Made by a program: the position numbers and the translations under genes. Below, piece after piece: positions 763 to 61,025 of a DNA stretch of 64,000 nt. This stretch comes from Candidatus Saccharimonadales bacterium (GTDB taxonomy: Bacteria; Patescibacteriota; Saccharimonadia; Saccharimonadales; JBGSXW01). The notes beneath the pieces are model-generated. The model was not told where the DNA came from. It searched no databases and saw only the letters and a program-made list of their open reading frames with translations. Location: assembly GCA_041751215.1 (NCBI GenBank), contig JBGSXW010000002.1, positions 350,591 to 414,590 on the forward strand, written 5' to 3'. The stretch's first letter is position 1, and each line of letters starts with the position of its first letter.

Positions 763-1746
763 ATGAATAACGAGCAGCAAAAGCTTGAGATTATGATAAA
801 ACTACCTCGGGGATTGAGTCTACCGGGTGGTCTGGTGGGGGCTGTCGCAAAAACTAAACTTTGCGACAAAGACACCTCTATATACACGCCCTCCTTTCGT
901 AAGATAAGGCGTAGGGATGAATTTAAGCCGATAGTCCCCGTTAAAACTGCTGCGAATTGGGAGCAGCACTTTAATAGTCCGCCACACGATACGCGAGCAC
1001 CCTGGGGGCGTGTGACTAGCCATCAAGAAGGCGAGGGCGGGCGTGGAATTCATTCTTTTTATGTAACTCGATTAATTGCTATTACCGACGAATCCGTCAC
1101 GCATAATACTGCGCAAAAAATTTATCACTCACTGGATGACTGGGCACAATTACTATGCGACTGGTATGAGGTCTACTTTCAAACAACCAGAGGAAATTCC
1201 TTAGAAGTAAAGCAGCACTCCAAGCATCATGAGGGGGTACAAGTTGATAGCAATGGAAAAATCGACAGCGAACTGAAGTGTAAGCATCCAATCGCAATTA
1301 CACTTGAGGTGGGCGACAAGCCTAATATACGACCGCAAGACTGGAGACGCATACTGGAACTTACTGGCATGGAGTCTGCGCCTCCTGAACCACATATTTT
1401 GTTACGAGATTCTCGAATTGAATATGGCAGAAAAAATTATCGGAGATGTGTGCTCGATGCAGCAACTGCAGCTGAAATGGCTTTGATTAAGTTGCAAGAT
1501 TCCACCCTTTTAAATACAGACTTGAAAATTGCTAAGTCAGTTAGGAAAAAGTACCGAGGAATTTACGAGCTTGTGGAATACCTCAAGACTACAGAAGTAG
1601 AATTTCCAAAAGACCAAATAAACAATGACGTCGCAAAGCCTAGGAACAAAGCCATACATGAGGGGGTTATGCCTAGCAAGGAACAAGCGGTGGCATGTTT
1701 AGAAAAAGCGACGGAGCTAGTAAACCGAGCTTTTCCTATTAATTAG
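763..1746 (+). CDS. HEPN-domain protein (RX4H motif), candidate RNase / abortive-infection-type effector
   Basis: The C-terminal ~110 aa are predicted helical, with AKPRNKAIHEG (R294-x4-H299, nt 1642-1659) in the position of the HEPN catalytic motif. I did not recognise the N-terminal 200 aa. Confidence 0.55.
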   Translation: MNNEQQKLEIMIKLPRGLSLPGGLVGAVAKTKLCDKDTSIYTPSFRKIRRRDEFKPIVPVKTAANWEQHFNSPPHDTRAPWGRVTSHQEGEGGRGIHSFYVTRLIAITDESVTHNTAQKIYHSLDDWAQLLCDWYEVYFQTTRGNSLEVKQHSKHHEGVQVDSNGKIDSELKCKHPIAITLEVGDKPNIRPQDWRRILELTGMESAPPEPHILLRDSRIEYGRKNYRRCVLDAATAAEMALIKLQDSTLLNTDLKIAKSVRKKYRGIYELVEYLKTTEVEFPKDQINNDVAKPRNKAIHEGVMPSKEQAVACLEKATELVNRAFPIN

Positions 1747-1775
1747 GGGTTCTCCCGCGCACAAACTTTGACGAC

Positions 1776-1805
1776 CGAACCTGGTGCTTTGCACCTTCAG
1801 GTTCG
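1776..1805 (-). other. tRNA-trailer hairpin module (T-arm mimic) downstream of tRNA-Arg
   Basis: In tRNA sense: CGAACCT-GAA-GGTGC-AAA-GCACC-AGGTTCG. The 3' strand CAGGTTCG equals the 5' half of the tRNA-Arg T-arm. The architecture matches the modules at 32114-32143 and 4145-4171. Confidence 0.55.
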
Positions 1806-1835
1806 ATGCTTGTCAGAACTACCACGAAAACAAAA

Positions 1836-1850
1836 CCACCCCTTGGGTGG
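1836..1850. terminator. bidirectional stem-loop terminator
   Basis: CCACCC-CTT-GGGTGG is followed by cattatttt on the plus strand and by TTTTGTTTTC on the minus strand. It sits between the HEPN gene end and the 3' end of tRNA-Arg. Confidence 0.5.
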
Positions 1851-1861
1851 CATTATTTTCG

Positions 1862-1938
1862 TGGTACCCCGGGCAGGAATCGAACCTGCGACACGTGGGA
1901 TAGAAGCCCACTGCTCTAATCCGCTGAGCTACCGGGGC
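1862..1938 (-). tRNA. tRNA-Arg (anticodon TCT)
   Basis: Hand-folded cloverleaf GCCCCGG/CCGGGGT, anticodon arm GTGGG-CTTCTAT-CCCAC, T-arm GCAGG-TTCGATT-CCTGC, encoded ACCA. Confidence 0.95.
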
Positions 1939-3727: not shown

Positions 3728-3746
3728 TTGGTCGGGGTGAGAGGAC
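3728..3746 (-). repeat. exact 19-nt copy of the tRNA-Pro(CGG) 3' end (att-like direct repeat)
   Basis: TTGGTCGGGGTGAGAGGAC at 3728-3746 is identical to 3933-3951. It starts 4 nt after the stop of the upstream CDS. Confidence 0.85.
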
Positions 3747-3901
3747 AGCGCTCCGGCTTCGCGCGGGGCTAACCTCCGAATTATTTTGCTCGCTCGTAAA
3801 GTGCGCTTAACGCACCTCGCTCGGCCAAGCAAGGAAAACATAAAGCCAAGACTTTGGCTTTATGCCTATCGGTCGGAGGTTCAAGACCAACAATCAGCCA
3901 A
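3747..3901 (-). repeat. tRNA-trailer module E1 (GC-rich, hairpin-rich, built partly from tRNA-Pro T-arm pieces)
   Basis: AACCTCCGA (3771-3779) is a direct T-stem copy. GGTCGGAGGTTCAAGACC (3871-3888) is a 17/18 inverted copy of the tRNA T-arm. An 11-bp hairpin CATAAAGCCAA/TTGGCTTTATG is also present. There is no credible ORF. Confidence 0.6.
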
Positions 3902-3933
3902 CCAAAAAGGGCCACAAAGCGGCCCCCTTTGGT
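3902..3933 (-). terminator. intrinsic terminator after tRNA-Pro(CGG)
   Basis: Minus sense: GGGGCC-GCTTTGT-GGCCC followed by TTTTTGG. Confidence 0.6.
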
Positions 3934-4008
3934 TGGTCGGGGTGAGAGGACTTGAACCTCCGACCTCCGCGTCCCGAACGCGGCGCGCTACCACTGCGCC
4001 ACACCCCG
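3934..4008 (-). tRNA. tRNA-Pro (anticodon CGG)
   Basis: CGGGGTG/CACCCCG acceptor, CCGCG-TTCGGGA-CGCGG anticodon arm, GGAGG-TTCAAGT-CCTCT T-arm, encoded ACCA. Confidence 0.95.
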
Positions 4009-4040: not shown

Positions 4041-4053
4041 GCGGTGAAAGGAC
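4041..4053 (-). repeat. degenerate copy of the tRNA-Pro(TGG) 3' end
   Basis: GCGGTGAAAGGAC versus GGGGTGAAAGGAC in the tRNA (4233-4245), 12/13 identical. Its position is analogous to the 3728-3746 copy. Confidence 0.45.
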
Positions 4054-4190
4054 ATCGCGCGGCTAAGAAGTGAGTGAAAGGGGCCGCCTTCGGCGCGTTT
4101 CCTCATGTGCTCGAAGTAAACTTCTGCGCGCATTCGTCACGAACGAACCTTCTGCTACGCAGTACAGGTTCTCGGGTCTATGCATCCGCA
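4054..4190 (-). repeat. tRNA-trailer module E2 (homolog of the module after tRNA-Lys)
   Basis: The reverse complement of 4110-4149 matches 32138-32177 at 33/40 positions without gaps (hand count). The hairpin GAACCT...AGGTTC (4145-4171) has a 3' strand, in tRNA sense, of GAAGGTTCG, which equals the tRNA-Pro(TGG) T-arm. Confidence 0.65.
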
Positions 4191-4227
4191 CCAAGCAAAA
4201 AGCCCTGCATTAGCAGGACTCTTTGCT
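4191..4227 (-). terminator. intrinsic terminator after tRNA-Pro(TGG)
   Basis: Minus sense: AGTCCTGC-TAAT-GCAGGGCT followed by TTTTTGCTTGG. Confidence 0.6.
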
Positions 4228-4304
4228 TGGTCGGGGTGAAAGGACTCGAACCTTCGACCCCCGCGTCCCAAACGCGGTGCGCTAGCCAACTGCGCTACAC
4301 CCCG
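4228..4304 (-). tRNA. tRNA-Pro (anticodon TGG)
   Basis: CGGGGTG/CACCCCG acceptor, CCGCG-TTTGGGA-CGCGG anticodon arm, GAAGG-TTCGAGT-CCTTT T-arm, encoded ACCA. Confidence 0.95.
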
Positions 4305-26526: not shown

Positions 26527-27447
26527 CTATTGATTTGCAGCTGGAGCGTCGCCGTAGCTAGCAACTACTCCCTTTTCGTCTAAGAACAAGCAGCCCTGTC
26601 CGCCCTTTAGAGTTGCGGCCGCAACCAGTGGAGCGCCGGTTACAACTTTTACTTGTCTGCCCAGGCATGGGACGCTACTACCACTTGGAAAGGCAAATAC
26701 TTCACCGTTTTTACCGAGCAGAGCATAGCCAAACTCGCCTTTGTCTTCGACTAAAATCATATCCACAATTTGCTCGTCGCTCGACAATCCAGCAACCCGG
26801 CCTAAGTCTCCGAGGTGCTCTGCGTCGCCGTAAGCATAAACAACGCCCATATTGTCGACTATCCAAAAGCCGCTACCATCGGGCAGGCCGACTGCCGACA
26901 CCGCTCGACTGTTATCGCGAGCTATTTGGTTCACTGGGTCGGGAGTTGCTAAGGGCCGCTGTTGTTCGATGTTAAAATCGTAAACTCGACCATCGGCACC
27001 AACTAAGCGATACCCTCCGGTCTGTGCGGGCACAATGTCAACAATGGGTGCTGGCGGAAAACTGCCATCAAGGCCGCCGTAGTACTCAGCCCCACCATAA
27101 CCATATACTCCACCGGTTGATGAGACTGCCCAAAAGCCCCCGGCGGATCTCGGGCTAGCCGCTACAACATCGCTAAGGGGTAGCTCGTCTGGAAAAGTTT
27201 GATCAAGTGGTGCGCCTTCTTCTGCCTGAACCTGTCCGTCTAGCGACAGCAACCAATAACCATCGTTGCTAGATGAAACTAAAACTGTAACTGGTGACGC
27301 AGGAGAGTTTGTTAAGCCAACAAAAACTAAAAAAGCCGCCAGTATAAATAAAATCGCTGCGATGGTTCGATCACGAAATCGCATTCCGTGACTTATAAAA
27401 GACATCCCCTTGCGATTGTTGCTTTGAGCTGTTTTAGTTTTGGCCAT
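26527..27447 (-). CDS. membrane-anchored exported protein with six G(Y/F)W-type repeats (probable beta-propeller)
   Basis: Signal anchor followed by six repeats: GYWLLSLDGQV, GFWAVSSTGGVYGYGGA, GYRLVGADGRVYDF, GFWIVDNMGVVYAYGDA, GYALLGKNGEVFAF, GCLFLDEKGVVASYGDA. Confidence 0.5.
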   Translation of the reverse strand: MAKTKTAQSNNRKGMSFISHGMRFRDRTIAAILFILAAFLVFVGLTNSPASPVTVLVSSSNDGYWLLSLDGQVQAEEGAPLDQTFPDELPLSDVVAASPRSAGGFWAVSSTGGVYGYGGAEYYGGLDGSFPPAPIVDIVPAQTGGYRLVGADGRVYDFNIEQQRPLATPDPVNQIARDNSRAVSAVGLPDGSGFWIVDNMGVVYAYGDAEHLGDLGRVAGLSSDEQIVDMILVEDKGEFGYALLGKNGEVFAFPSGSSVPCLGRQVKVVTGAPLVAAATLKGGQGCLFLDEKGVVASYGDAPAANQ

Positions 27448-30711: not shown

Positions 30712-31869
30712 CTACCTGTTATGTGGGGTGTCGCCAGCTTTATGGAAGGGATCAATTGCTGTATAAACAGTCTGCCTAATCATCTCGTTGTAGTAGGCAA
30801 TGTCTTGGGTTGAATTTGTATCCAAAAACAGTCGGCTTTTATTGGGATCAGGTGGTCGATAAACGTGATCGTGCAGATCCTCTAAAGGCACTTTTTCGGC
30901 CTCTTCCCTGCAATATGTGCGCCCGTACCACAACTGTTGTGTCGCCTCAACCATCTCGTCGGGCTTAATGCCGTATGCTCTCAGCACGTACGCAACATCG
31001 GGGTTCGCGGTTCCATAAAACTGATAATAACTTCCATGAAAAATCCGGTTAACTAAATCTAGTGGGTTTGACATCTCCATGTTCAGCCGATAGTCTCTGT
31101 AATCTTTGAACTCTTGCTCGGGAGCTCGATTTACTTCCAGCTCTCGCCTGCTCTGCACATAAAAGCTCGACAGGACTTCGGCGATCCCAACAAGCACCCG
31201 AAAACGATGTTCTTCTGGCAACGGCAAGTCTGTTTCTGGCACCCCCGCTATGTTTGCTGAGACAGCTAACGACAACAGGTCCCAGTCAACCCGAGGTAAA
31301 AGATGATCACCTGTGCGCCAGGCCATTCGTTTTGGCTCTCCCGCTTCGGTTTCATCCACAAACCCCTCTAGGAATCCGGTAATCGCCCGCTTTCCAACTA
31401 GCAAAACGGTAGGCTGGGTAATTTCGCGAAGAAATACATCCGGACAAGCCGATCCAAGTTCTCGTGCTTTGTTCTGATCTTTAACCACGCTCATAGGTTC
31501 GGAGGGCTCAATCAAGTCGGCTTCTGGAGGGTGAAAGCCAGCTAGGTGCCCGGAGCGATACATGTTTGCTGGCAGCAACTCCCATATATCAGAACGGTAA
31601 CTGACGCCAACACTAGTAATAACAAATGGATGTTGCGGCAGGCTTGGCTCTACGTCTTCTTGGGCCTCAGATTGCATACCAAAGTCAACTGGAGGAAACG
31701 CAGCTATTCGATAATCTCGGTAGGTAATATAACCGGCTTCGTAATTGCCAGGCTCTGCTGAGCGCATCGGGTTTTGTATTTGTTCTCCCAGGTCGTAAAT
31801 ACCGAGCACTGGCTCTTGCTCAAAGTCCGATAAGTACTCCGGTCTCTCGGCGGGAACGAATTCTCTCAT
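30712..31869 (-). CDS. hypothetical protein (385 aa, no recognised domain)
   Basis: A long ORF with no competing frame. Confidence 0.55.
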   Translation of the reverse strand: MREFVPAERPEYLSDFEQEPVLGIYDLGEQIQNPMRSAEPGNYEAGYITYRDYRIAAFPPVDFGMQSEAQEDVEPSLPQHPFVITSVGVSYRSDIWELLPANMYRSGHLAGFHPPEADLIEPSEPMSVVKDQNKARELGSACPDVFLREITQPTVLLVGKRAITGFLEGFVDETEAGEPKRMAWRTGDHLLPRVDWDLLSLAVSANIAGVPETDLPLPEEHRFRVLVGIAEVLSSFYVQSRRELEVNRAPEQEFKDYRDYRLNMEMSNPLDLVNRIFHGSYYQFYGTANPDVAYVLRAYGIKPDEMVEATQQLWYGRTYCREEAEKVPLEDLHDHVYRPPDPNKSRLFLDTNSTQDIAYYNEMIRQTVYTAIDPFHKAGDTPHNR

Positions 31870-31981: not shown

Positions 31982-32058
31982 GGGCCCATAGCTCAGCCGG
32001 TTAGAGCACCTGCCTTTTAAGCAGGGTGTCCTGGGTTCGAGTCCCAGTGGGCCCTCCA
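31982..32058 (+). tRNA. tRNA-Lys (anticodon TTT)
   Basis: GGGCCCA/TGGGCCC acceptor, CCTGC-CTTTTAA-GCAGG anticodon arm, CTGGG-TTCGAGT-CCCAG T-arm, encoded CCA. Confidence 0.95.
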
Positions 32059-32095
32059 ATCTAAGAACCTGCCGTATGGCGGGTTTTTAGATTGG
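32056..32095 (+). terminator. intrinsic terminator after tRNA-Lys
   Basis: CCAATCTAA...AACCTGCC-GTAT-GGCGGGTT-TTT...TTAGATTGG, a nested stem ending in a T-run. Confidence 0.6.
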
Positions 32096-32096
32096 A

Positions 32097-32282
32097 GAGA
32101 TTTATTGCGTACTCGAACCCATGACGGCGTAGCCGTGGGTTCGTTCGTGAGGAGCTCTCGCAGAAGCTTGCTTCGAGAAAGTGACGAAACGGCGAACGTA
32201 AGTGAGCGCCCCCGGTGGGCCAATTTCAATCGCGAGCTGAGAGGGCGAGCGTAGATGCAAATTGCCCCCAGTGGGTTTTCAC
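32097..32282 (+). repeat. tRNA-trailer module D (homolog of E2) with degenerate tRNA-Lys 3'-end copies
   Basis: Hairpin CGAACCC-ATG-ACGGC-GTA-GCCGT-GGGTTCG (32114-32143). 32138-32177 matches E2 at 33/40. CCCCCGGTGGGCC (32209-32221) and CCCCCAGTGGG (32265-32275) echo the tRNA segment CCCAGTGGGCC. Confidence 0.6.
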
Positions 32283-33320: not shown

Positions 33321-34325
33321 GTGGAAGCCTGCGAGCGTCTAGTTGACACCGGCCTAAGTCAAATTACTCTGTTATCTGTTGGTGTTTTAGTTATTAGTGC
33401 TGCCCTGGCTCTAATCTTTTTTGGTAATCGATACTCGATCAAAACTTTGGTTTTGGTAGTTGGAGTGCTCTTTAGTCTTACGTTTATATCTAGCCCAGCA
33501 ATTAGCTTCGCCCAAGCTGTTGAAGACGACTGCCCGACGGAAGTCGATAACGATGAAGGAACGGCCGTACTTTCTTTGGTTGATGACCAAGGCGTAATAC
33601 AACTCCCCGACGAAGATAGCAGCACTACCACTATATACATGGCGATCCTTAACAATGATCAGCATGAAGCCGGCGATCCAATAGACTGGGAAACCGTCGA
33701 CCTAGACCCAGATACTCCTGGGATCCAAAGCTCCATAGCTCTAATGCACCCAGACGATGAGGTTGACGACTACTACTGCGGCTCAATTACGGTCGAGAGT
33801 TTTGGCATTTTATCTGTATCATTATCCTTTAACTGCTTCGACGGAGAATTTGATGCATCATTAGAAATACCACTTGATTACACAATCGCACCGTTTGCCT
33901 ACACCGCCCAGACACTTGGGGGCACCCCTGCCACCGCTCCAGCCACCGTGACAGTTATTGTTGAAGCCGACATCGAAGCAAGTATTGTACTAGCAGAAAA
34001 TGACCACGCTTCCGAATTTGGCGATTGCGGTGTTTTTGAAAGCTTTTCATTCAATGTCTTAACAAACGACAGCACATCCGAAGGCAGTCTGGTGGCCTCG
34101 ACTGTGGACCTAAATCCATCGCGCGCAGGCGTGCAAAGCAGTGTCAATATAGTTGTTGATGGCACCGTCTTTACGGCAAGCGTAAATGGAGCTGGCCTAG
34201 TCACTGTGACAAATGTTAGTGAAAACGGCGAAGCTCCTCCGGTTTTCTTCTACACAGTCGAGAACTCAAACGGGGGTGTGTCTAACGTTGCCGCCATAAC
34301 TTGGTCTTGTGAAGGTATTTTTTGA
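33321..34325 (+). CDS. exported protein with cadherin/Ig-like repeats
   Basis: GTG start with an AAAGGA SD, an N-terminal TM/signal, and two (I/V)LxND..(E/S)G motifs typical of cadherin-like repeats. Confidence 0.4.
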   Translation: MEACERLVDTGLSQITLLSVGVLVISAALALIFFGNRYSIKTLVLVVGVLFSLTFISSPAISFAQAVEDDCPTEVDNDEGTAVLSLVDDQGVIQLPDEDSSTTTIYMAILNNDQHEAGDPIDWETVDLDPDTPGIQSSIALMHPDDEVDDYYCGSITVESFGILSVSLSFNCFDGEFDASLEIPLDYTIAPFAYTAQTLGGTPATAPATVTVIVEADIEASIVLAENDHASEFGDCGVFESFSFNVLTNDSTSEGSLVASTVDLNPSRAGVQSSVNIVVDGTVFTASVNGAGLVTVTNVSENGEAPPVFFYTVENSNGGVSNVAAITWSCEGIF

Positions 34326-47189: not shown

Positions 47190-47394
47190 GAAGCCTAGAT
47201 TCCTGCTTCCGCAGGAATGACAAGGTTTTGGTCTAAGTTCTTTTCGCGGATGAAATGCAAGGAAGATGTGAAGCACAGAGGCGGGCTGTGCAAGTGGCAC
47301 TGCCCCCGAGTACTGGAGCGTCTGACGCAGAGCCGGCAGAGCTGTTGGCTCTGCCAACAGGCAGGCCGGCGACAGTTCGCCGTGAGAGGTTAGG
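47190..47394 (-). repeat. GC-rich structured intergenic element, copy B
   Basis: The core 47258-47332 aligns to copy C at 53/75 without gaps (hand count) and to copy A with small indels. Hairpins lie at 47199-47218, 47335-47355 and 47367-47382. It abuts the murJ stop. Confidence 0.6.
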
Positions 47395-60540: not shown

Positions 60541-60729
60541 CGTCGAGAAGTGGCGGCCTTGTTAACAGAACCGCAGTGCTTGATTTGGTTTCTGGCCAGG
60601 AAGAACTGAAACACAGACCGATGCTGTGTAACTGACACCGCTCGGGAGTATTGGAGGCTCTGACGCCGCCAGAAAGCAAAAGGCCGGCAGCGCAGTGAGC
60701 TATGCTCGCTGGCAGGCCGGCCGATCAAG
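60541..60729 (-). repeat. GC-rich structured intergenic element, copy C
   Basis: The core 60596-60670 aligns to copy B at 53/75 without gaps. The hairpin GCTGTGT/ACACCGC covaries with GCTGTGC/GCACTGC of A and B. An 8-bp hairpin CAGTGAGC-TAT-GCTCGCTG is present. Confidence 0.6.
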
Positions 60730-60734
60730 TTCTG

Positions 60735-60781
60735 TGGTAGCGGCGACTGGATTTGAACCAGTGACCCCAGGCTTATGAGTC
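60735..60781 (-). pseudogene. truncated tRNA(CAT): 3' half only (anticodon loop to CCA)
   Basis: GACTCATAAGCCTGGGGTCACTGGTTCAAATCCAGTCGCCGCTACCA is 40/47 identical to the 3' half of the intact tRNA at 60949-61025, with compensatory T-stem changes. There is no matching 5' acceptor strand upstream. Confidence 0.8.
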
Positions 60782-60948
60782 TTGCCTTTGACGCTAATGC
60801 TAACGACTTCACCAAGGTGTACGAACGAGCATCACTGCGTTTTCGTCAGCACATGATTGGTGCTATTGCCGTCAACTCTAGCCGTCAGAATGATTAACAC
60901 GAGCAGGGATTAAGTTGTTATTTGTATAACTTTTTTAATAAAGTCAAA

Positions 60949-61025
60949 TGGTAGCACCGACAGGAATTGAACCTGTGACCTTAGGCTTATGAGTCCTACG
61001 CTCTAACCAACTGAGCTACGGTGCC
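60949..61025 (-). tRNA. tRNA with CAT anticodon (elongator Met or lysidine-dependent Ile2)
   Basis: GGCACCG/CGGTGCT acceptor, loop CTCATAA, T-arm ACAGG-TTCAATT-CCTGT, encoded ACCA. It is not initiator-like. There is an A31-G39 mismatch. Confidence 0.9.

Follow-up and report, generated by a model that had tools for sequence, protein, structure and literature searches.

The trailers of tRNA-Lys(ttt) and tRNA-Pro(tgg) in the window, by which we mean the whole 64-kb stretch of DNA analysed, contain diverged members of one trailer-module family, here termed D and E2. Module D is quite possibly a copy in decay, and the family to which it belongs lineage-specific, consisting of gene-less units of ~130–190 bp that lie 3' of tRNA genes in part of the Saccharimonadales.

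Positions 32138–32177 of D and the reverse complement of positions 4110–4149 of E2 are identical at 33 of 40 positions without gaps. This match, claimed in an earlier note on the sequence, was reproduced. When both trailers were shuffled (n = 1000), the best 40-mer identity had a mean of 21.3 (sd 1.07) and a maximum of 25, and 33 was never reached. A repeat search extended the homology to 68 nt at 78% identity (4096–4163 / 32124–32191), the longest inverted pair in the 64-kb window, and the common block begins 80 nt past the end of tRNA-Lys and 79 nt past the end of tRNA-Pro. Both GGTTCGTTCGTGA and CGCAGAAGnTTnCTTCGAG are found exactly in D and in E2 and nowhere else. The homology of the two modules was borne out by a covariance model, R2, built from 13 copies that all lie outside the window. 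Its significant matches in the 64 kb are E2 (47.2 bits, E 2.3e-10, at 4072–4152) and D (27.3 bits, E 6.8e-5, over 32135–32222) only; the trailer of tRNA-Arg is marginal (12.7 bits, E 0.7; model R1, 15.8 bits).

The features of module D are all on the plus strand. tRNA-Lys(ttt) itself (31982..32058; ARAGORN; Rfam tRNA, 72.4 bits) has an encoded CCA and provides F1, the intact T-arm and 3' end. The terminator scan placed a terminator-like hairpin of 20 pairs at 32054..32097, its stem beginning in the CCA end and its A-tract pairing with the T-tract, which would suit termination in both directions. This CCA-embedding design recurs after tRNA-Pro-cgg, tRNA-Pro-tgg and tRNA-Arg. Downstream lies R (32111..32125), an inverted copy of the tRNA-Lys T-arm identified by local alignment to the reverse-complemented tRNA 3' half (score 25), for which the own tRNA ranks first among 14 tRNAs. 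The ‘anti-T-arm’ of the earlier note, TCGAACCCA at 32113–32121, is indeed complementary to 32032–32040, and the full complementary stretch is 11 nt long: ACTCGAACCCA (32111–32121) is the exact complement of TGGGTTCGAGT, positions 32032–32042 of tRNA-Lys. R is followed by the apical hairpin P1a, ACGGC-GTA-GCCGT (32124..32136, read from the sequence), at which the homology with E2 starts; P1a varies across the family, the apex GCGTAGC being common to D and E2. F2L, TGGGTTCG (32136..32143, by alignment and folding), repeats the T-arm 5' strand and the T-loop through G57 in direct orientation and pairs with R to form the stem P1. The conserved insert, or P2 domain (extra-hairpin subtype), replaces T-loop nucleotide 58 (32144..32191, by R2 score and family covariation) and has the core CGCAG-AAG-CTTG-CTT-CGAG at 32159–32177. 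After a GAAACG motif, folding indicates a small extra hairpin, P3, of the form GGCG...CGCC (32192..32210); the members of the P3 subtype are D, E2, L007a, L026a, L036 and L021e. Two copies of the tRNA-Lys 3' end had been reported at the end of D and were confirmed by alignment: a degenerate one, F2R (CCCGGTGGGCCA vs CCCAGTGGGCCCTCCA; 32211..32222), and a distal one, CCCAGTGGG (32267..32275), probably the remnant of an older unit.

The remaining modules of the window are on the minus strand. E2 (4043..4227, delimited by alignment, repeats and R2) is preceded by tRNA-Pro(tgg) (4228..4304; ARAGORN, Rfam) and comprises a terminator (~4190–4231), the R arm GAACCT (4166–4171), P1a (4153–4165), F2L GAAGGTTCG (4144–4152), the insert (4096–4143, core 4110–4128), P3 (4084–4095) and two copies of the tRNA 3' end (4074–4081 and 4043–4057). 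Behind tRNA-Arg(tct) (1862–1938) lies a truncated module (1752..1861) with a terminator (~1835–1851), R ATCGAACCTG (1798–1807), P1a GGTGC-AAA-GCACC, F2L CAGGTTCG (1776–1783) and, of a canonical insert, the first half (GTCGTCAAAG..CGCGGGAG). The module breaks off at the end of a convergent ORF (763–1746); a full module behind tRNA-Arg(tct) is present in L025. The module behind tRNA-Pro(cgg) (3934–4008) is a variant (3729..3933). Its terminator (3898–3936) and R, whose inverted T-arm core is exact at 14/14 positions (within 3871–3888), are followed by ~90 nt of other hairpins, by F2L TCGGAGGTT (3771–3779), by an unrelated 24-nt insert that replaces the T-loop CAA (3747–3770) and by a repeat of the tRNA 3' end that is exact at 18/18 positions (3729–3746). 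The hairpins of D, E2 and the Arg trailer read as the earlier note had quoted them.

Across the family, a unit runs from a terminator that includes the CCA end through the inverted T-arm (R), a variable hairpin and a direct T-arm copy ending with G57 to the P2 insert, with or without P3, which replaces A58; tRNA nucleotides 59–76 with CCA and often a second terminator complete it. R spans ~nucleotides 46–65 of the tRNA and follows the terminator within ~5–20 nt in 18 of the 18 units mapped in detail. In the 13 tRNA/trailer pairs compared, every module with the conserved insert has a left tRNA copy that stops at G57; in the ProCGG variant it stops at T55. The right copy, that of the 3' end, begins at a distance of 18 to 16 nt from the CCA end in 12 of the 13 trailers (18 in most units). 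The homology to the tRNA ends 8–15 nt upstream of TTCG. Between the tRNA and its displaced copy there are 80–190 nt without an ORF; ~45–55 nt are common to the copies and the remainder is specific to the local tRNA. This anatomy goes beyond that described in the earlier note: the anti-T-arm turns out to be the T-arm inverted in full, and the conserved block is structured and interrupts a partial tRNA copy precisely at position 58 of its T-loop.

The earlier note had cautioned that GGTTCG is near-universal in T-loops. This caveat was tested on 14 tRNA/trailer pairs, and specificity lay above the chance level of 1 in 14: the own tRNA 3' end was the best match to its trailer in 8/14 cases and the own inverted T-arm in 7/14, in keeping with the claim that the arms are tRNA-specific on both strands. 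The outer 5' arm of E2, GAACCT, has 6 nt only, ranks tenth and is not tRNA-specific by this test. Essentially no such matches were obtained with 17 control tRNAs, none of which has a model-detected module. The control scan also returned a degenerate copy behind the L021 tRNA-Arg-gcg and a possible vestige behind the L038 tRNA-Pro. The short E2 arm, the universality of the T-loop motif and the pattern matches inside ORFs of unrelated phyla might suggest that there is no real element here and that the modules are a chance product or by-product of the near-universal GGTTCGA T-loop and of GC-rich terminators. This explanation has next to no probability and is already refuted by the tests: the match of 33/40 against a shuffled maximum of 25 at equal offset from both tRNAs, the R2 E values of 2e-10 and 7e-5, the covariation described below, the ranking of cognate tRNAs and the clean controls.

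R can pair with the direct copy, and the resulting stem is a duplex version of the T-arm region; in the predicted fold P2 branches from the centre of this P1 stem, giving a three- or four-way junction. Double changes occur in 10 of the 14 P2 pairs. In the family alignment 95.8% of cells are paired, compared with 77.8% in shuffles and at most 43.5% in register-shifted controls. The P2 stems differ between loci with the pairing kept, and the internal-loop nucleotides CGCAG / CGAGCA are invariant. The z-scores of the junction fold are −3.6 (L025), −5.9 (L036) and −4.4 (L021e). In 11 of 15 units the sense (tRNA) strand has a more favourable fold than the antisense strand (sum −716 vs −652 kcal/mol), and it is richer in G-U pairs.

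The strong P2 covariation, the invariant loop and the better-folding, G-U-rich sense strand argue for a structured RNA, as do the many units that end in an intact NCCA and then their own terminator (L012, L019, L021, L026). Such an RNA would arise by terminator read-through (or from an orphan promoter), carry T-arm stems and the tRNA acceptor 3' strand with CCA, and serve as a mimic, decoy or sponge of tRNA ends for a tRNA-binding enzyme, a toxin or a processing nuclease, with P2 binding protein and the arms conferring identity. We regard this explanation, the main rival of the DNA-element reading given below, as rather unlikely. Every unit sits behind a terminator of 18–20 pairs with a T-tract, the promoter scan found no promoter-like site inside the module, and no Rfam family matches. 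The closing stem that would mimic an acceptor is not conserved either: a minihelix forms in L013, L036 and L021e and is absent in L019 and the L021 Ser-gct units, and was rejected as a general feature.

Known tRNA-like RNAs (viral tRNA-like structures, mascRNA, the Y-RNA YrlA, tmRNA) resemble the units in their T-arm sequence, multi-branch junction and NCCA tail, and possibly in a tRNA-mimic role. They differ in that the T-loop of the unit is destroyed by the insert, its acceptor stem is not conserved and a terminator lies upstream. Even with E allowed up to 10, the module drew no match from the tRNA clan, tmRNA or Y-RNA families of Rfam.

Pattern scans of genomes and metagenomes gave real copies only in contigs of Saccharibacteria (TM7). 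Several pattern matches, inside ORFs of unrelated phyla, were due to chance. Modules occur behind other tRNAs and in related genomes, namely behind at least eight tRNA species on ~10 contigs. The host genes are those for tRNA-Pro, Glu, Ser (three isoacceptors), Asp, Arg and probably Gln, and in the module-bearing contigs examined roughly every second tRNA gene has at least one unit. Tandem arrays are present in L021, L007 and L026; L026b has a chimeric 3'-end copy. All copies but two adjoin a tRNA 3' end, and none are scattered. The exceptions are the orphan units of L012 and L017, the only ones without a tRNA. Both are flanked by GAGCCA repeats and lie just 3' of a repeated promoter-like intergenic motif, a position that is another point in favour of an RNA. 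The orphan sequence GTGAGCCA is probably part of this repeated motif, not a tRNA remnant.

In genomes with RNase Y ~70% identical, modules are found behind tRNA-Pro-tgg and tRNA-Arg-tct, and such maintenance behind the same tRNAs in a streamlined phylum is again what an RNA would predict. In contrast, the relatives L030, L031 and L032, with RNase Y 79–91% identical, are without modules; L036 (79%) has one. Copy number varies and copies decay (the Arg copy truncated by the gene end, D at 27 bits), which likewise weighs against an RNA. The role in RNase P/Z processing considered in the earlier note is unsupported, because the module lies behind the 18–20-bp terminator, is promoterless and is absent from close relatives. 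Directly downstream of tRNA-Lys lies the gene of a CYTH-domain protein. Its closest homologue has 71% identity and no longer shares synteny, and no orthologous tRNA-Lys locus was found in the relatives. For the closest relative by RNase Y (96% identical), the contig ends before the tRNAs. Near-identical strains did not yield an empty and a filled version of one locus that would give exact boundaries. An independent contig of the same genome starts inside the module.

A comparison of L019 with L023 bears on mobility. Terminator and module are identical at 96/106 positions (91%), tRNA-Glu at 57/76 (75%) and the upstream flank at 23/51 (45%), the gene being ~55% identical in amino acids, and identity breaks exactly at the CCA end. 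Because the module is far more conserved than the tRNA and flank, the unit seems laterally mobile; judged from these alignments, it seems to move between related genomes as DNA. R and the 3'-end copy of L019 match the tRNA-Glu of L023 and mismatch the adjacent tRNA, which speaks once more against an RNA. The proposal that the anti-T-arm pairs either with its own copy or with the real tRNA thus holds in its first half: pairing with the own copy is kept, whereas pairing with the real tRNA is not a conserved feature, because the L019 arms match the tRNA of another contig.

We tentatively favour, with confidence somewhat short of even, an insertion element of cassette-like, gene-less kind, located at tRNA 3' ends and acting in the form of a folded strand. 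The unit would be a selfish element inserting at the tRNA 3' end, and insertion there would leave direct repeats of that end flanking it. The resulting layout may be read as the signature known from integrative elements that target tRNAs, ‘regenerated target plus displaced fragment’, with the cargo absent; this signature marks integrated islands (PMC4383910). The conserved fold would be read by a trans-acting enzyme, the substrate probably being single-stranded DNA like that of integron attC sites and the CTX hairpin; recombination of a folded single strand with a duplex target has been described for CTX phage (PMC3442271) and for integrons (PMC4792948). After landing beside a non-identical tRNA, the arms may gradually be converted to the local tRNA sequence, in which case L019 and the chimeric L026b could represent stages before or midway through conversion, and D versus E2 its completed state.

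Several points tell against such a cassette. At ~150 bp the unit is very small for a circular intermediate, and gene conversion has to be assumed, the gain of tRNA-specific sequence by R and the left copy being without a mechanistic account. The junction evidence is mixed, since the copy boundary lies at nucleotides 58/59 and the junctions of L019 and the orphans at the CCA end. The modules behind Pro-tgg and Arg-tct in the ~70% RNase Y genomes would also fit a selected function, and covariation in a palindrome can arise by template-switch correction without selection. Finally, no recombinase, transposase or shared neighbour gene was found among the tested ORFs of the window or the best 25 of 65 neighbour families of the 11 module-bearing loci, and no copy in viral contigs, phage records or plasmids.

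Likeness to islands and prophages at tRNAs extends to the intact tRNA followed by inserted DNA and a displaced 3'-end copy (mostly 18 nt from CCA), to arrays by repeated events, to a terminator supplied by the element and to a patchy distribution (PMC4383910). The units differ from islands in their size of ~130–190 bp without integrase or gene, in the structured domain that interrupts the displaced copy at nucleotide 58, in the inverted T-arm copy that precedes it and in that a full-length parent element was not found. Among the marks of tRNA targeting, the displaced direct 3' copy is present; an integrase or cargo between the two copies, and an attP in phage, plasmid or viral DNA, were not found. 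These likenesses raise the question of scars, left when integrase islands or phages at tRNAs were later deleted down to the regenerated tRNA, the attachment arm (P2 + R) and the displaced fragment, with the hairpins kept perfect by palindrome correction and selection not needed. The island signature itself (PMC4383910) fits scars, as does a classical scar of this type in the window, the displaced 45-nt 3' part of another tRNA-Met allele that lies 167 nt downstream of tRNA-Met with its own terminator after it. Palindrome correction could also account for two near-identical tandem units of L021, which differ by a double change, A-T to C-G, that keeps a P1a pair. We nevertheless think scars improbable: 18 of 18 units are without a trace of cargo or integrase, so that an identical precise deletion would have to recur, and the exact interruption of the displaced copy at nucleotide 58 by a conserved domain is unlike a normal attachment junction. 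Nor do scars sit well with P2 stems that vary with the pairing kept, or with the lack of matches in viral, phage and plasmid collections.

For the folded-strand cassette that we favour, integron attC sites offer a formal parallel in their folded imperfect palindrome with a variable apex (compare P1a) and an unpaired central element (compare P2), in the formation of arrays by a fixed site and in a structure kept while arm sequences vary. ORF-less cassettes exist among integron cassettes. Unlike attC, the units lack the GTTRRRY / RYYYAAC core: their stem base is CGAACC / GGTTCGG, and the nearest heptamer, GTTCGGT, breaks the consensus with a C in place of the first R. Their arms derive from the neighbouring tRNA, a conserved hairpin of 45–90 nt stands at the centre, and no IntI or attI was found among the tested ORFs of the 64-kb window or, among the best 25 of 65 neighbour families, in the related loci. 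The likeness in fold and arrays is a resemblance of form only. Elements of the CTX-phage type, which integrate as a folded single strand through host Xer recombinases, share two inverted target copies forming a forked hairpin that mimics the duplex target, the F-R-F order (once integrated: target copy, element, inverted copy, spacer, target copy), common tandem copies and the lack of an element-encoded recombinase (PMC3442271). However, the target of the unit is the tRNA 3' end, not dif; no phage genome lies between the sites, and no similarity to Xer-type sites was seen.

REP/REPIN sequences and IS200/IS605 miniature elements are likewise small, gene-less, hairpin-forming and multi-copy, and follow gene ends. 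IS200/IS605 elements insert 3' of a fixed short motif without target duplication; the P2 insert, which follows TTCG in a hairpin loop with no duplication, has the look of such an insertion. In contrast to these elements, only ~45–55 nt of the unit are common, the rest being tRNA-specific, and all copies but two are tied to tRNAs; no TnpA, TnpB or RAYT was seen among the best 25 of 65 neighbour families of the related loci, and there was no match to an IS-associated RNA of Rfam. The units do not behave as MITEs, which have terminal inverted repeats, a target-site duplication of fixed length and near-identical copies scattered over the genome: R and F2L, the inverted repeats of the unit, are internal and tRNA-specific, 6–18 nt of tRNA 3' end form the flanking repeats, and the copies in the window lie only behind tRNAs.

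Searches for associated genes and for known families were negative. Among the best 25 of 65 neighbour families, none recurs in more than two of the 11 module-bearing loci, and an associated protein was rejected on these grounds. No recombinase, transposase or integrase was found among the tested ORFs of the window or among these 25 families in the 11 loci; as the neighbour scan covers 25 of 65 families, a single integrase could be missed. Viral contigs, phage records and plasmids gave no real match to the unit, and an origin from phage or plasmid was discarded. Rfam gathering scores in the window are reached by tRNAs only, and in permissive searches the module remained uncovered at E up to 10 in the window and up to 1 in four related loci; a known RNA family was rejected at both thresholds. 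A literature search gave no paper describing such a design, in line with the suggestion of the earlier note that it is undescribed.

Further candidates were rejected. A small ORF is not supported, the overlapping ORFs (23–70 aa) being spurious. A tRNA pseudogene or intron-containing tRNA lacks its acceptor 5' strand, D-arm and anticodon arm, and ARAGORN finds no gene. For a group I or archaeal-type T-loop intron, the 5' two-thirds of the tRNA are missing upstream. Group I introns end in guanosine; as read from the sequence, the insert has no terminal guanosine and is too short. The known tRNA introns of Patescibacteria are at position 35/36, in the anticodon loop (10.1101/2025.07.03.662931). 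Hammerhead, kink-turn, SRP helix 8 and group II domain V, compared by eye only, have registers that conflict with the covariation. Derivation of P1a from the anticodon arm was dropped for want of consistent similarity, and a DNA-uptake sequence was discarded, the core motif being confined to modules.

That the units constitute a new class of mini-cassette of candidate-phyla-radiation (CPR) bacteria, with the folded strand (a T-arm duplex mimic from which a conserved hairpin branches at T-loop position 58) as attachment site or, equally new, tRNA-specific mimic RNAs acting in cis is possible, though we hold it with some doubt. As a new class of cassette, a host or distant recombinase would help insertion, and the unit would then be re-tailored to the local tRNA. 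Genomes of Saccharibacteria have ~1 Mb and little spare DNA, yet the units are common. They break short-read assemblies and can confuse the annotation of tRNAs and genomic islands; the covariance models (R1, R2) make a census straightforward. If RNAs, the units would be a new tRNA-specific mimic class. If mobile, they would be smaller than any other known insertion element that targets tRNAs, would exemplify hairpin-based site recognition at tRNA genes and would mark lateral DNA flow between uncultured episymbionts.

The DNA of the window is ~47% G+C and belongs to the core chromosome of a member of the Saccharibacteria (TM7, order Saccharimonadales). Housekeeping genes such as RecA, RuvB, DnaK/DnaJ, PilM and RNase Y are present, the RNase Y shares 70-96% identity with proteins named Saccharibacteria or Saccharimonadales, and a Saccharimonadales MAG contig (L007) is syntenic with the window around the tRNA-Pro pair. 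There are six tRNA genes (Arg-tct, Gly-tcc, Pro-cgg, Pro-tgg, Lys-ttt and Met-cat). Four carry a unit of the kind described here: module D behind tRNA-Lys, module E2 behind tRNA-Pro-tgg, a truncated unit behind tRNA-Arg-tct, and a variant behind tRNA-Pro-cgg with an inverted T-arm core of 14/14, a perfect 3′-end copy (18/18) and an unrelated 24-nt insert. ORFs of 300-385 aa without a Pfam match adjoin tRNA loci at 763-1746 (+), 30712-31869 (-), 33321-34325 (+) and 26527-27447 (-), and the end of the first coincides exactly with the truncation point of the Arg module.

The likeness of D and E2 had been given in an earlier note as 33 matches in 40 positions (32138-32177 against the reverse complement of 4110-4149), and this count was reproduced; when both trailers were shuffled 1000 times, the best 40-mer identity averaged 21.3 ± 1.07 and never exceeded 25. 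The block common to both starts 80 nt past the end of tRNA-Lys and 79 nt past that of tRNA-Pro, and the homology spans 68 nt at 78%, making it the longest inverted pair in the window. The hairpins occur in the sequence as quoted there, the ‘anti-T-arm’ said to be complementary to tRNA-Lys reaches 11 nt (32111-32121 against 32032-32042), and D has its two tRNA-Lys 3′-end copies at 32211-32221 and 32267-32275. The original observation is real and larger than reported. Chance resemblance is excluded.

In 13 tRNA/trailer pairs, taken from the window and from related contigs, alignment of the last 45 nt of the tRNA with the trailer that follows it, in either orientation, revealed a single consistent anatomy. 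Each unit begins with a terminator hairpin of 18-20 pairs, the stem of which starts in the CCA end. Some 5-20 nt past it the whole T-arm (about nt 46-65) is copied in inverted orientation (R). Next come P1a, a hairpin of variable sequence that is at times just a 3-nt loop, and F2L, a direct copy of the variable region and T-arm 5′ strand. An insert separates F2L from F2R, a direct tRNA copy running from about nt 59 (18 to 16 nt from the CCA end) through CCA. Since F2L ends at G57 of the T-loop (…TTCG) in modules with the conserved insert, the insert replaces just A58. The conserved block described previously (GGTTCGTTCGTGA…CGCAGAAG…CTTCGAG) is F2L plus the insert, and the outer stem is R paired with F2L; in most units R is also able to pair with the T-arm 3′ strand within F2R. 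The predicted fold is a three-way junction, or a four-way junction in a subtype with an extra hairpin (P3), in which the closing stems would reproduce the T-arm as a duplex with the insert branching from its centre. Folding z-scores were as low as −5.9. Unusually long terminator hairpins (18-20 pairs or more) stand at all four module-bearing tRNAs of the window (1798-1888, 3898-3936, 4172-4249 and 32054-32097); here the CCA end and an A-tract pair with a T-tract and TGG, and the T-arm of the tRNA can be taken into the inverted repeat as well (two inverted-repeat pairs).

Scanning 185,579 species genomes with a degenerate pattern returned 17 matches; four are real, all in Saccharibacteria MAGs, and the remainder are chance matches inside ORFs. 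The same approach in metagenomes added six further contigs with real copies. At these loci the units follow tRNAs for Pro, Glu, Asp and Arg, three tRNA-Ser isoacceptors and a probable tRNA-Gln, always in the orientation of the tRNA and past its terminator, and tandem arrays of two are frequent. The covariance model R2 was built from 13 copies, all outside the window (model R1 included the window copies). Its sole significant matches in the window were E2 (47.2 bits, E 2e-10) and D (27.3 bits, E 7e-5), with the tRNA-Arg trailer marginal (E 0.7), all E-values being rough owing to a shortened calibration. D and E2 are therefore homologous, as had been proposed. Both fall in the subtype marked by a GAAACG-like purine stretch plus P3, as do four units on related contigs (L007a, L026a, L036 and L021e). 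No Rfam family matched the module, searches of phages, plasmids and viral contigs gave no copy, and literature searches found no similar element, in agreement with the earlier statement that no described element of this design was known to its author. The known tRNA introns of Patescibacteria are group I introns at anticodon-loop position 35/36 (10.1101/2025.07.03.662931).

The insert folds as a hairpin (P2) whose internal loop has invariant nucleotides on both sides (5′ CGCAG, 3′ CGAGCA). Over 16 copies, standard pairs fill 95.8% of pair cells, against 77.8% in shuffles and at most 43.5% in register-shifted controls, and double (compensatory) changes occur at 10 of 14 pairs, although covariation in DNA palindromes can arise without selection. 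This covariation speaks for the main rival reading, namely that the units are a functional read-through RNA mimicking a tRNA end. So does the strand bias in folding, the tRNA-sense strand folding better than the antisense in 11 of 15 units, with 7 G-U pairs in P2 versus about 3 A·C mismatches. The intact CCA followed by a second terminator points the same way, as does the persistence of units at the same tRNAs between genomes whose RNase Y proteins are about 70% identical. The design is, however, poor for expression, with a strong terminator always ahead and no promoter-like site found in the units, and we consider such an RNA possible but rather doubtful. Likeness to known ribozymes and protein-binding RNA motifs was judged by eye. 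In near-identical tandem tRNA-Ser(gct) units (L021 1700-1990), a double change in P1a keeps the pair (CCAAGA…TCTTGG vs CCAAGC…GCTTGG), which fits either selection for pairing or template-switch palindrome correction.

In a comparison of 14 tRNA/trailer pairs, the trailer's own tRNA ranked first by its 18-nt 3′ end in 8 cases and by its inverted T-arm in 7, where chance gives 1 in 14. Tailoring to the local tRNA is thus real, notwithstanding the caveat that GGTTCG is near-universal in T-loops. Seventeen control tRNAs without a model-detected module gave essentially no such matches, save for a neighbouring tRNA gene and a tRNA-Met scar; the control scan also yielded a degenerate module copy behind the tRNA-Arg-gcg of L021 and a possible vestige behind the tRNA-Pro of L038. 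Tailoring is not obligatory, because on contig L019 R, F2L and F2R all match the tRNA-Glu of contig L023 and mismatch the adjacent tRNA-Glu. The proposed pairing of the anti-T-arm is accordingly kept with the module's own T-arm copy and not with the real tRNA, and pairing inside the module is the conserved feature.

L019 and L023 are syntenic but distant (upstream gene about 55% amino-acid identity, upstream DNA 23/51). Their tRNAs are identical at 57/76 positions and terminator plus module at 96/106, the shift in conservation falling exactly at …GATCACCA, the tRNA 3′ end; at the sequence level this is a signal pointing to lateral transfer. The distribution is patchy. Relatives with RNase Y 91%, 84% and 79% identical to that of the window (L030, L031, L032) have no unit behind tRNA-Pro-tgg and L038 (78%) at most a vestige, while L036 (79%), L007 (70%) and L025 do carry a unit. 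No empty/filled pair from near-identical strains was seen in the collections searched, in which close relatives are few; the contig of the closest (L029, RNase Y 96%) stops just ahead of the tRNA cluster. At L030 5176-5290 and L032 13720-13850 tRNA-Pro(tgg) has no terminator and a protein gene starts ~30-50 nt on; a called gene in L030 (5182-5541) overlaps the tRNA. A contig (L027) of an independent short-read assembly of the window's genome (Logan SRR28170463) begins at window position 32117, within the inverted T-arm copy of D, so tRNA-like repeats evidently fragment assemblies.

L021 carries two tRNA-Ser-gct units that are nearly identical, terminator included, and two tRNA-Ser-tga units with near-identical P2 and unrelated R and P1a. 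The 3′-end copy of L026b is chimeric, an Asp T-arm strand followed by an …ATCACCA end. Orphan units without a tRNA, on L012 and L017, lie directly past a repeated intergenic motif, GGTTATAACGTTCTCTAT(A/C)GT(T/G)GTGAGCCA, and are thus flanked by GAGCCA repeats. The motif (L012 7424-7469; L017 1509-1554, 2814-2853 and 4220-4309) includes two palindromes, GTTATAAC and AACGTT, and is found ahead of protein genes as well as of both orphan modules. It may be a promoter or operator and does not occur in the window. The window ORFs tested included no integrase or transposase, and among the top 25 protein families listed none was common to more than 2 of 11 module-bearing loci.

An intact tRNA, a short inserted segment and a displaced copy of the last 18 nt, often with the original terminator, together are the mark of DNA inserted site-specifically at a tRNA gene, where a regenerated tRNA plus a displaced copy is known (PMC4383910); in contrast to those insertions, the units have no cargo. 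That they are plain scars of conventional islands would explain neither why cargo is uniformly missing nor why the insert sits at nt 58, and seems quite unlikely. Downstream of tRNA-Met (60949-61025), the window itself holds a classical displaced tRNA fragment (60724-60948, -). Here, 167 nt past the tRNA, another tRNA-Met allele is represented by 45 nt of its 3′ part, from anticodon loop to CCA (79% identical over 58 nt with flank), and a GC-rich terminator of its own follows. As the fragment has neither a P2-type insert nor an inverted T-arm, it has the appearance of an ordinary integration scar, the crossover having been in the anticodon loop. This terminator is one of two copies, 77% identical, of a palindromic hairpin GCCGGC…GCCGGC (47332-47370 and 60683-60721); L013 has a similar GC-rich palindrome (about 190-215).

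With an inverted T-arm copy folding on a direct copy, a variable apex and a conserved central branch, the units are reminiscent of recombination sites that function in the form of a folded single strand, such as integron attC sites (PMC4792948) and the CTX-phage hairpin, and their forward-reverse-forward order of site copies is that left by integrated CTX phage (PMC3442271). We tentatively favour, at somewhat less than an even chance, a selfish cassette without genes. An enzyme acting in trans would insert it as a folded strand at tRNA 3′ ends, and the arms of the cassette would later become local-tRNA sequence by gene conversion. Such conversion would explain why D and E2 have P1a, P2 and the purine stretch before P3 in common and yet have Lys- and Pro-specific arms. 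For the crossover, the copy boundary would place it at nt 58/59, while L019 and the orphan junctions point to the CCA end.

What stands behind these tRNA genes of Saccharibacteria is a conserved family of structured, tRNA-derived units that shows signs of moving laterally and has no described counterpart. These would represent a variant of tRNA-targeted insertion, with a smaller but appreciable chance that they are a categorically new kind of element or RNA.
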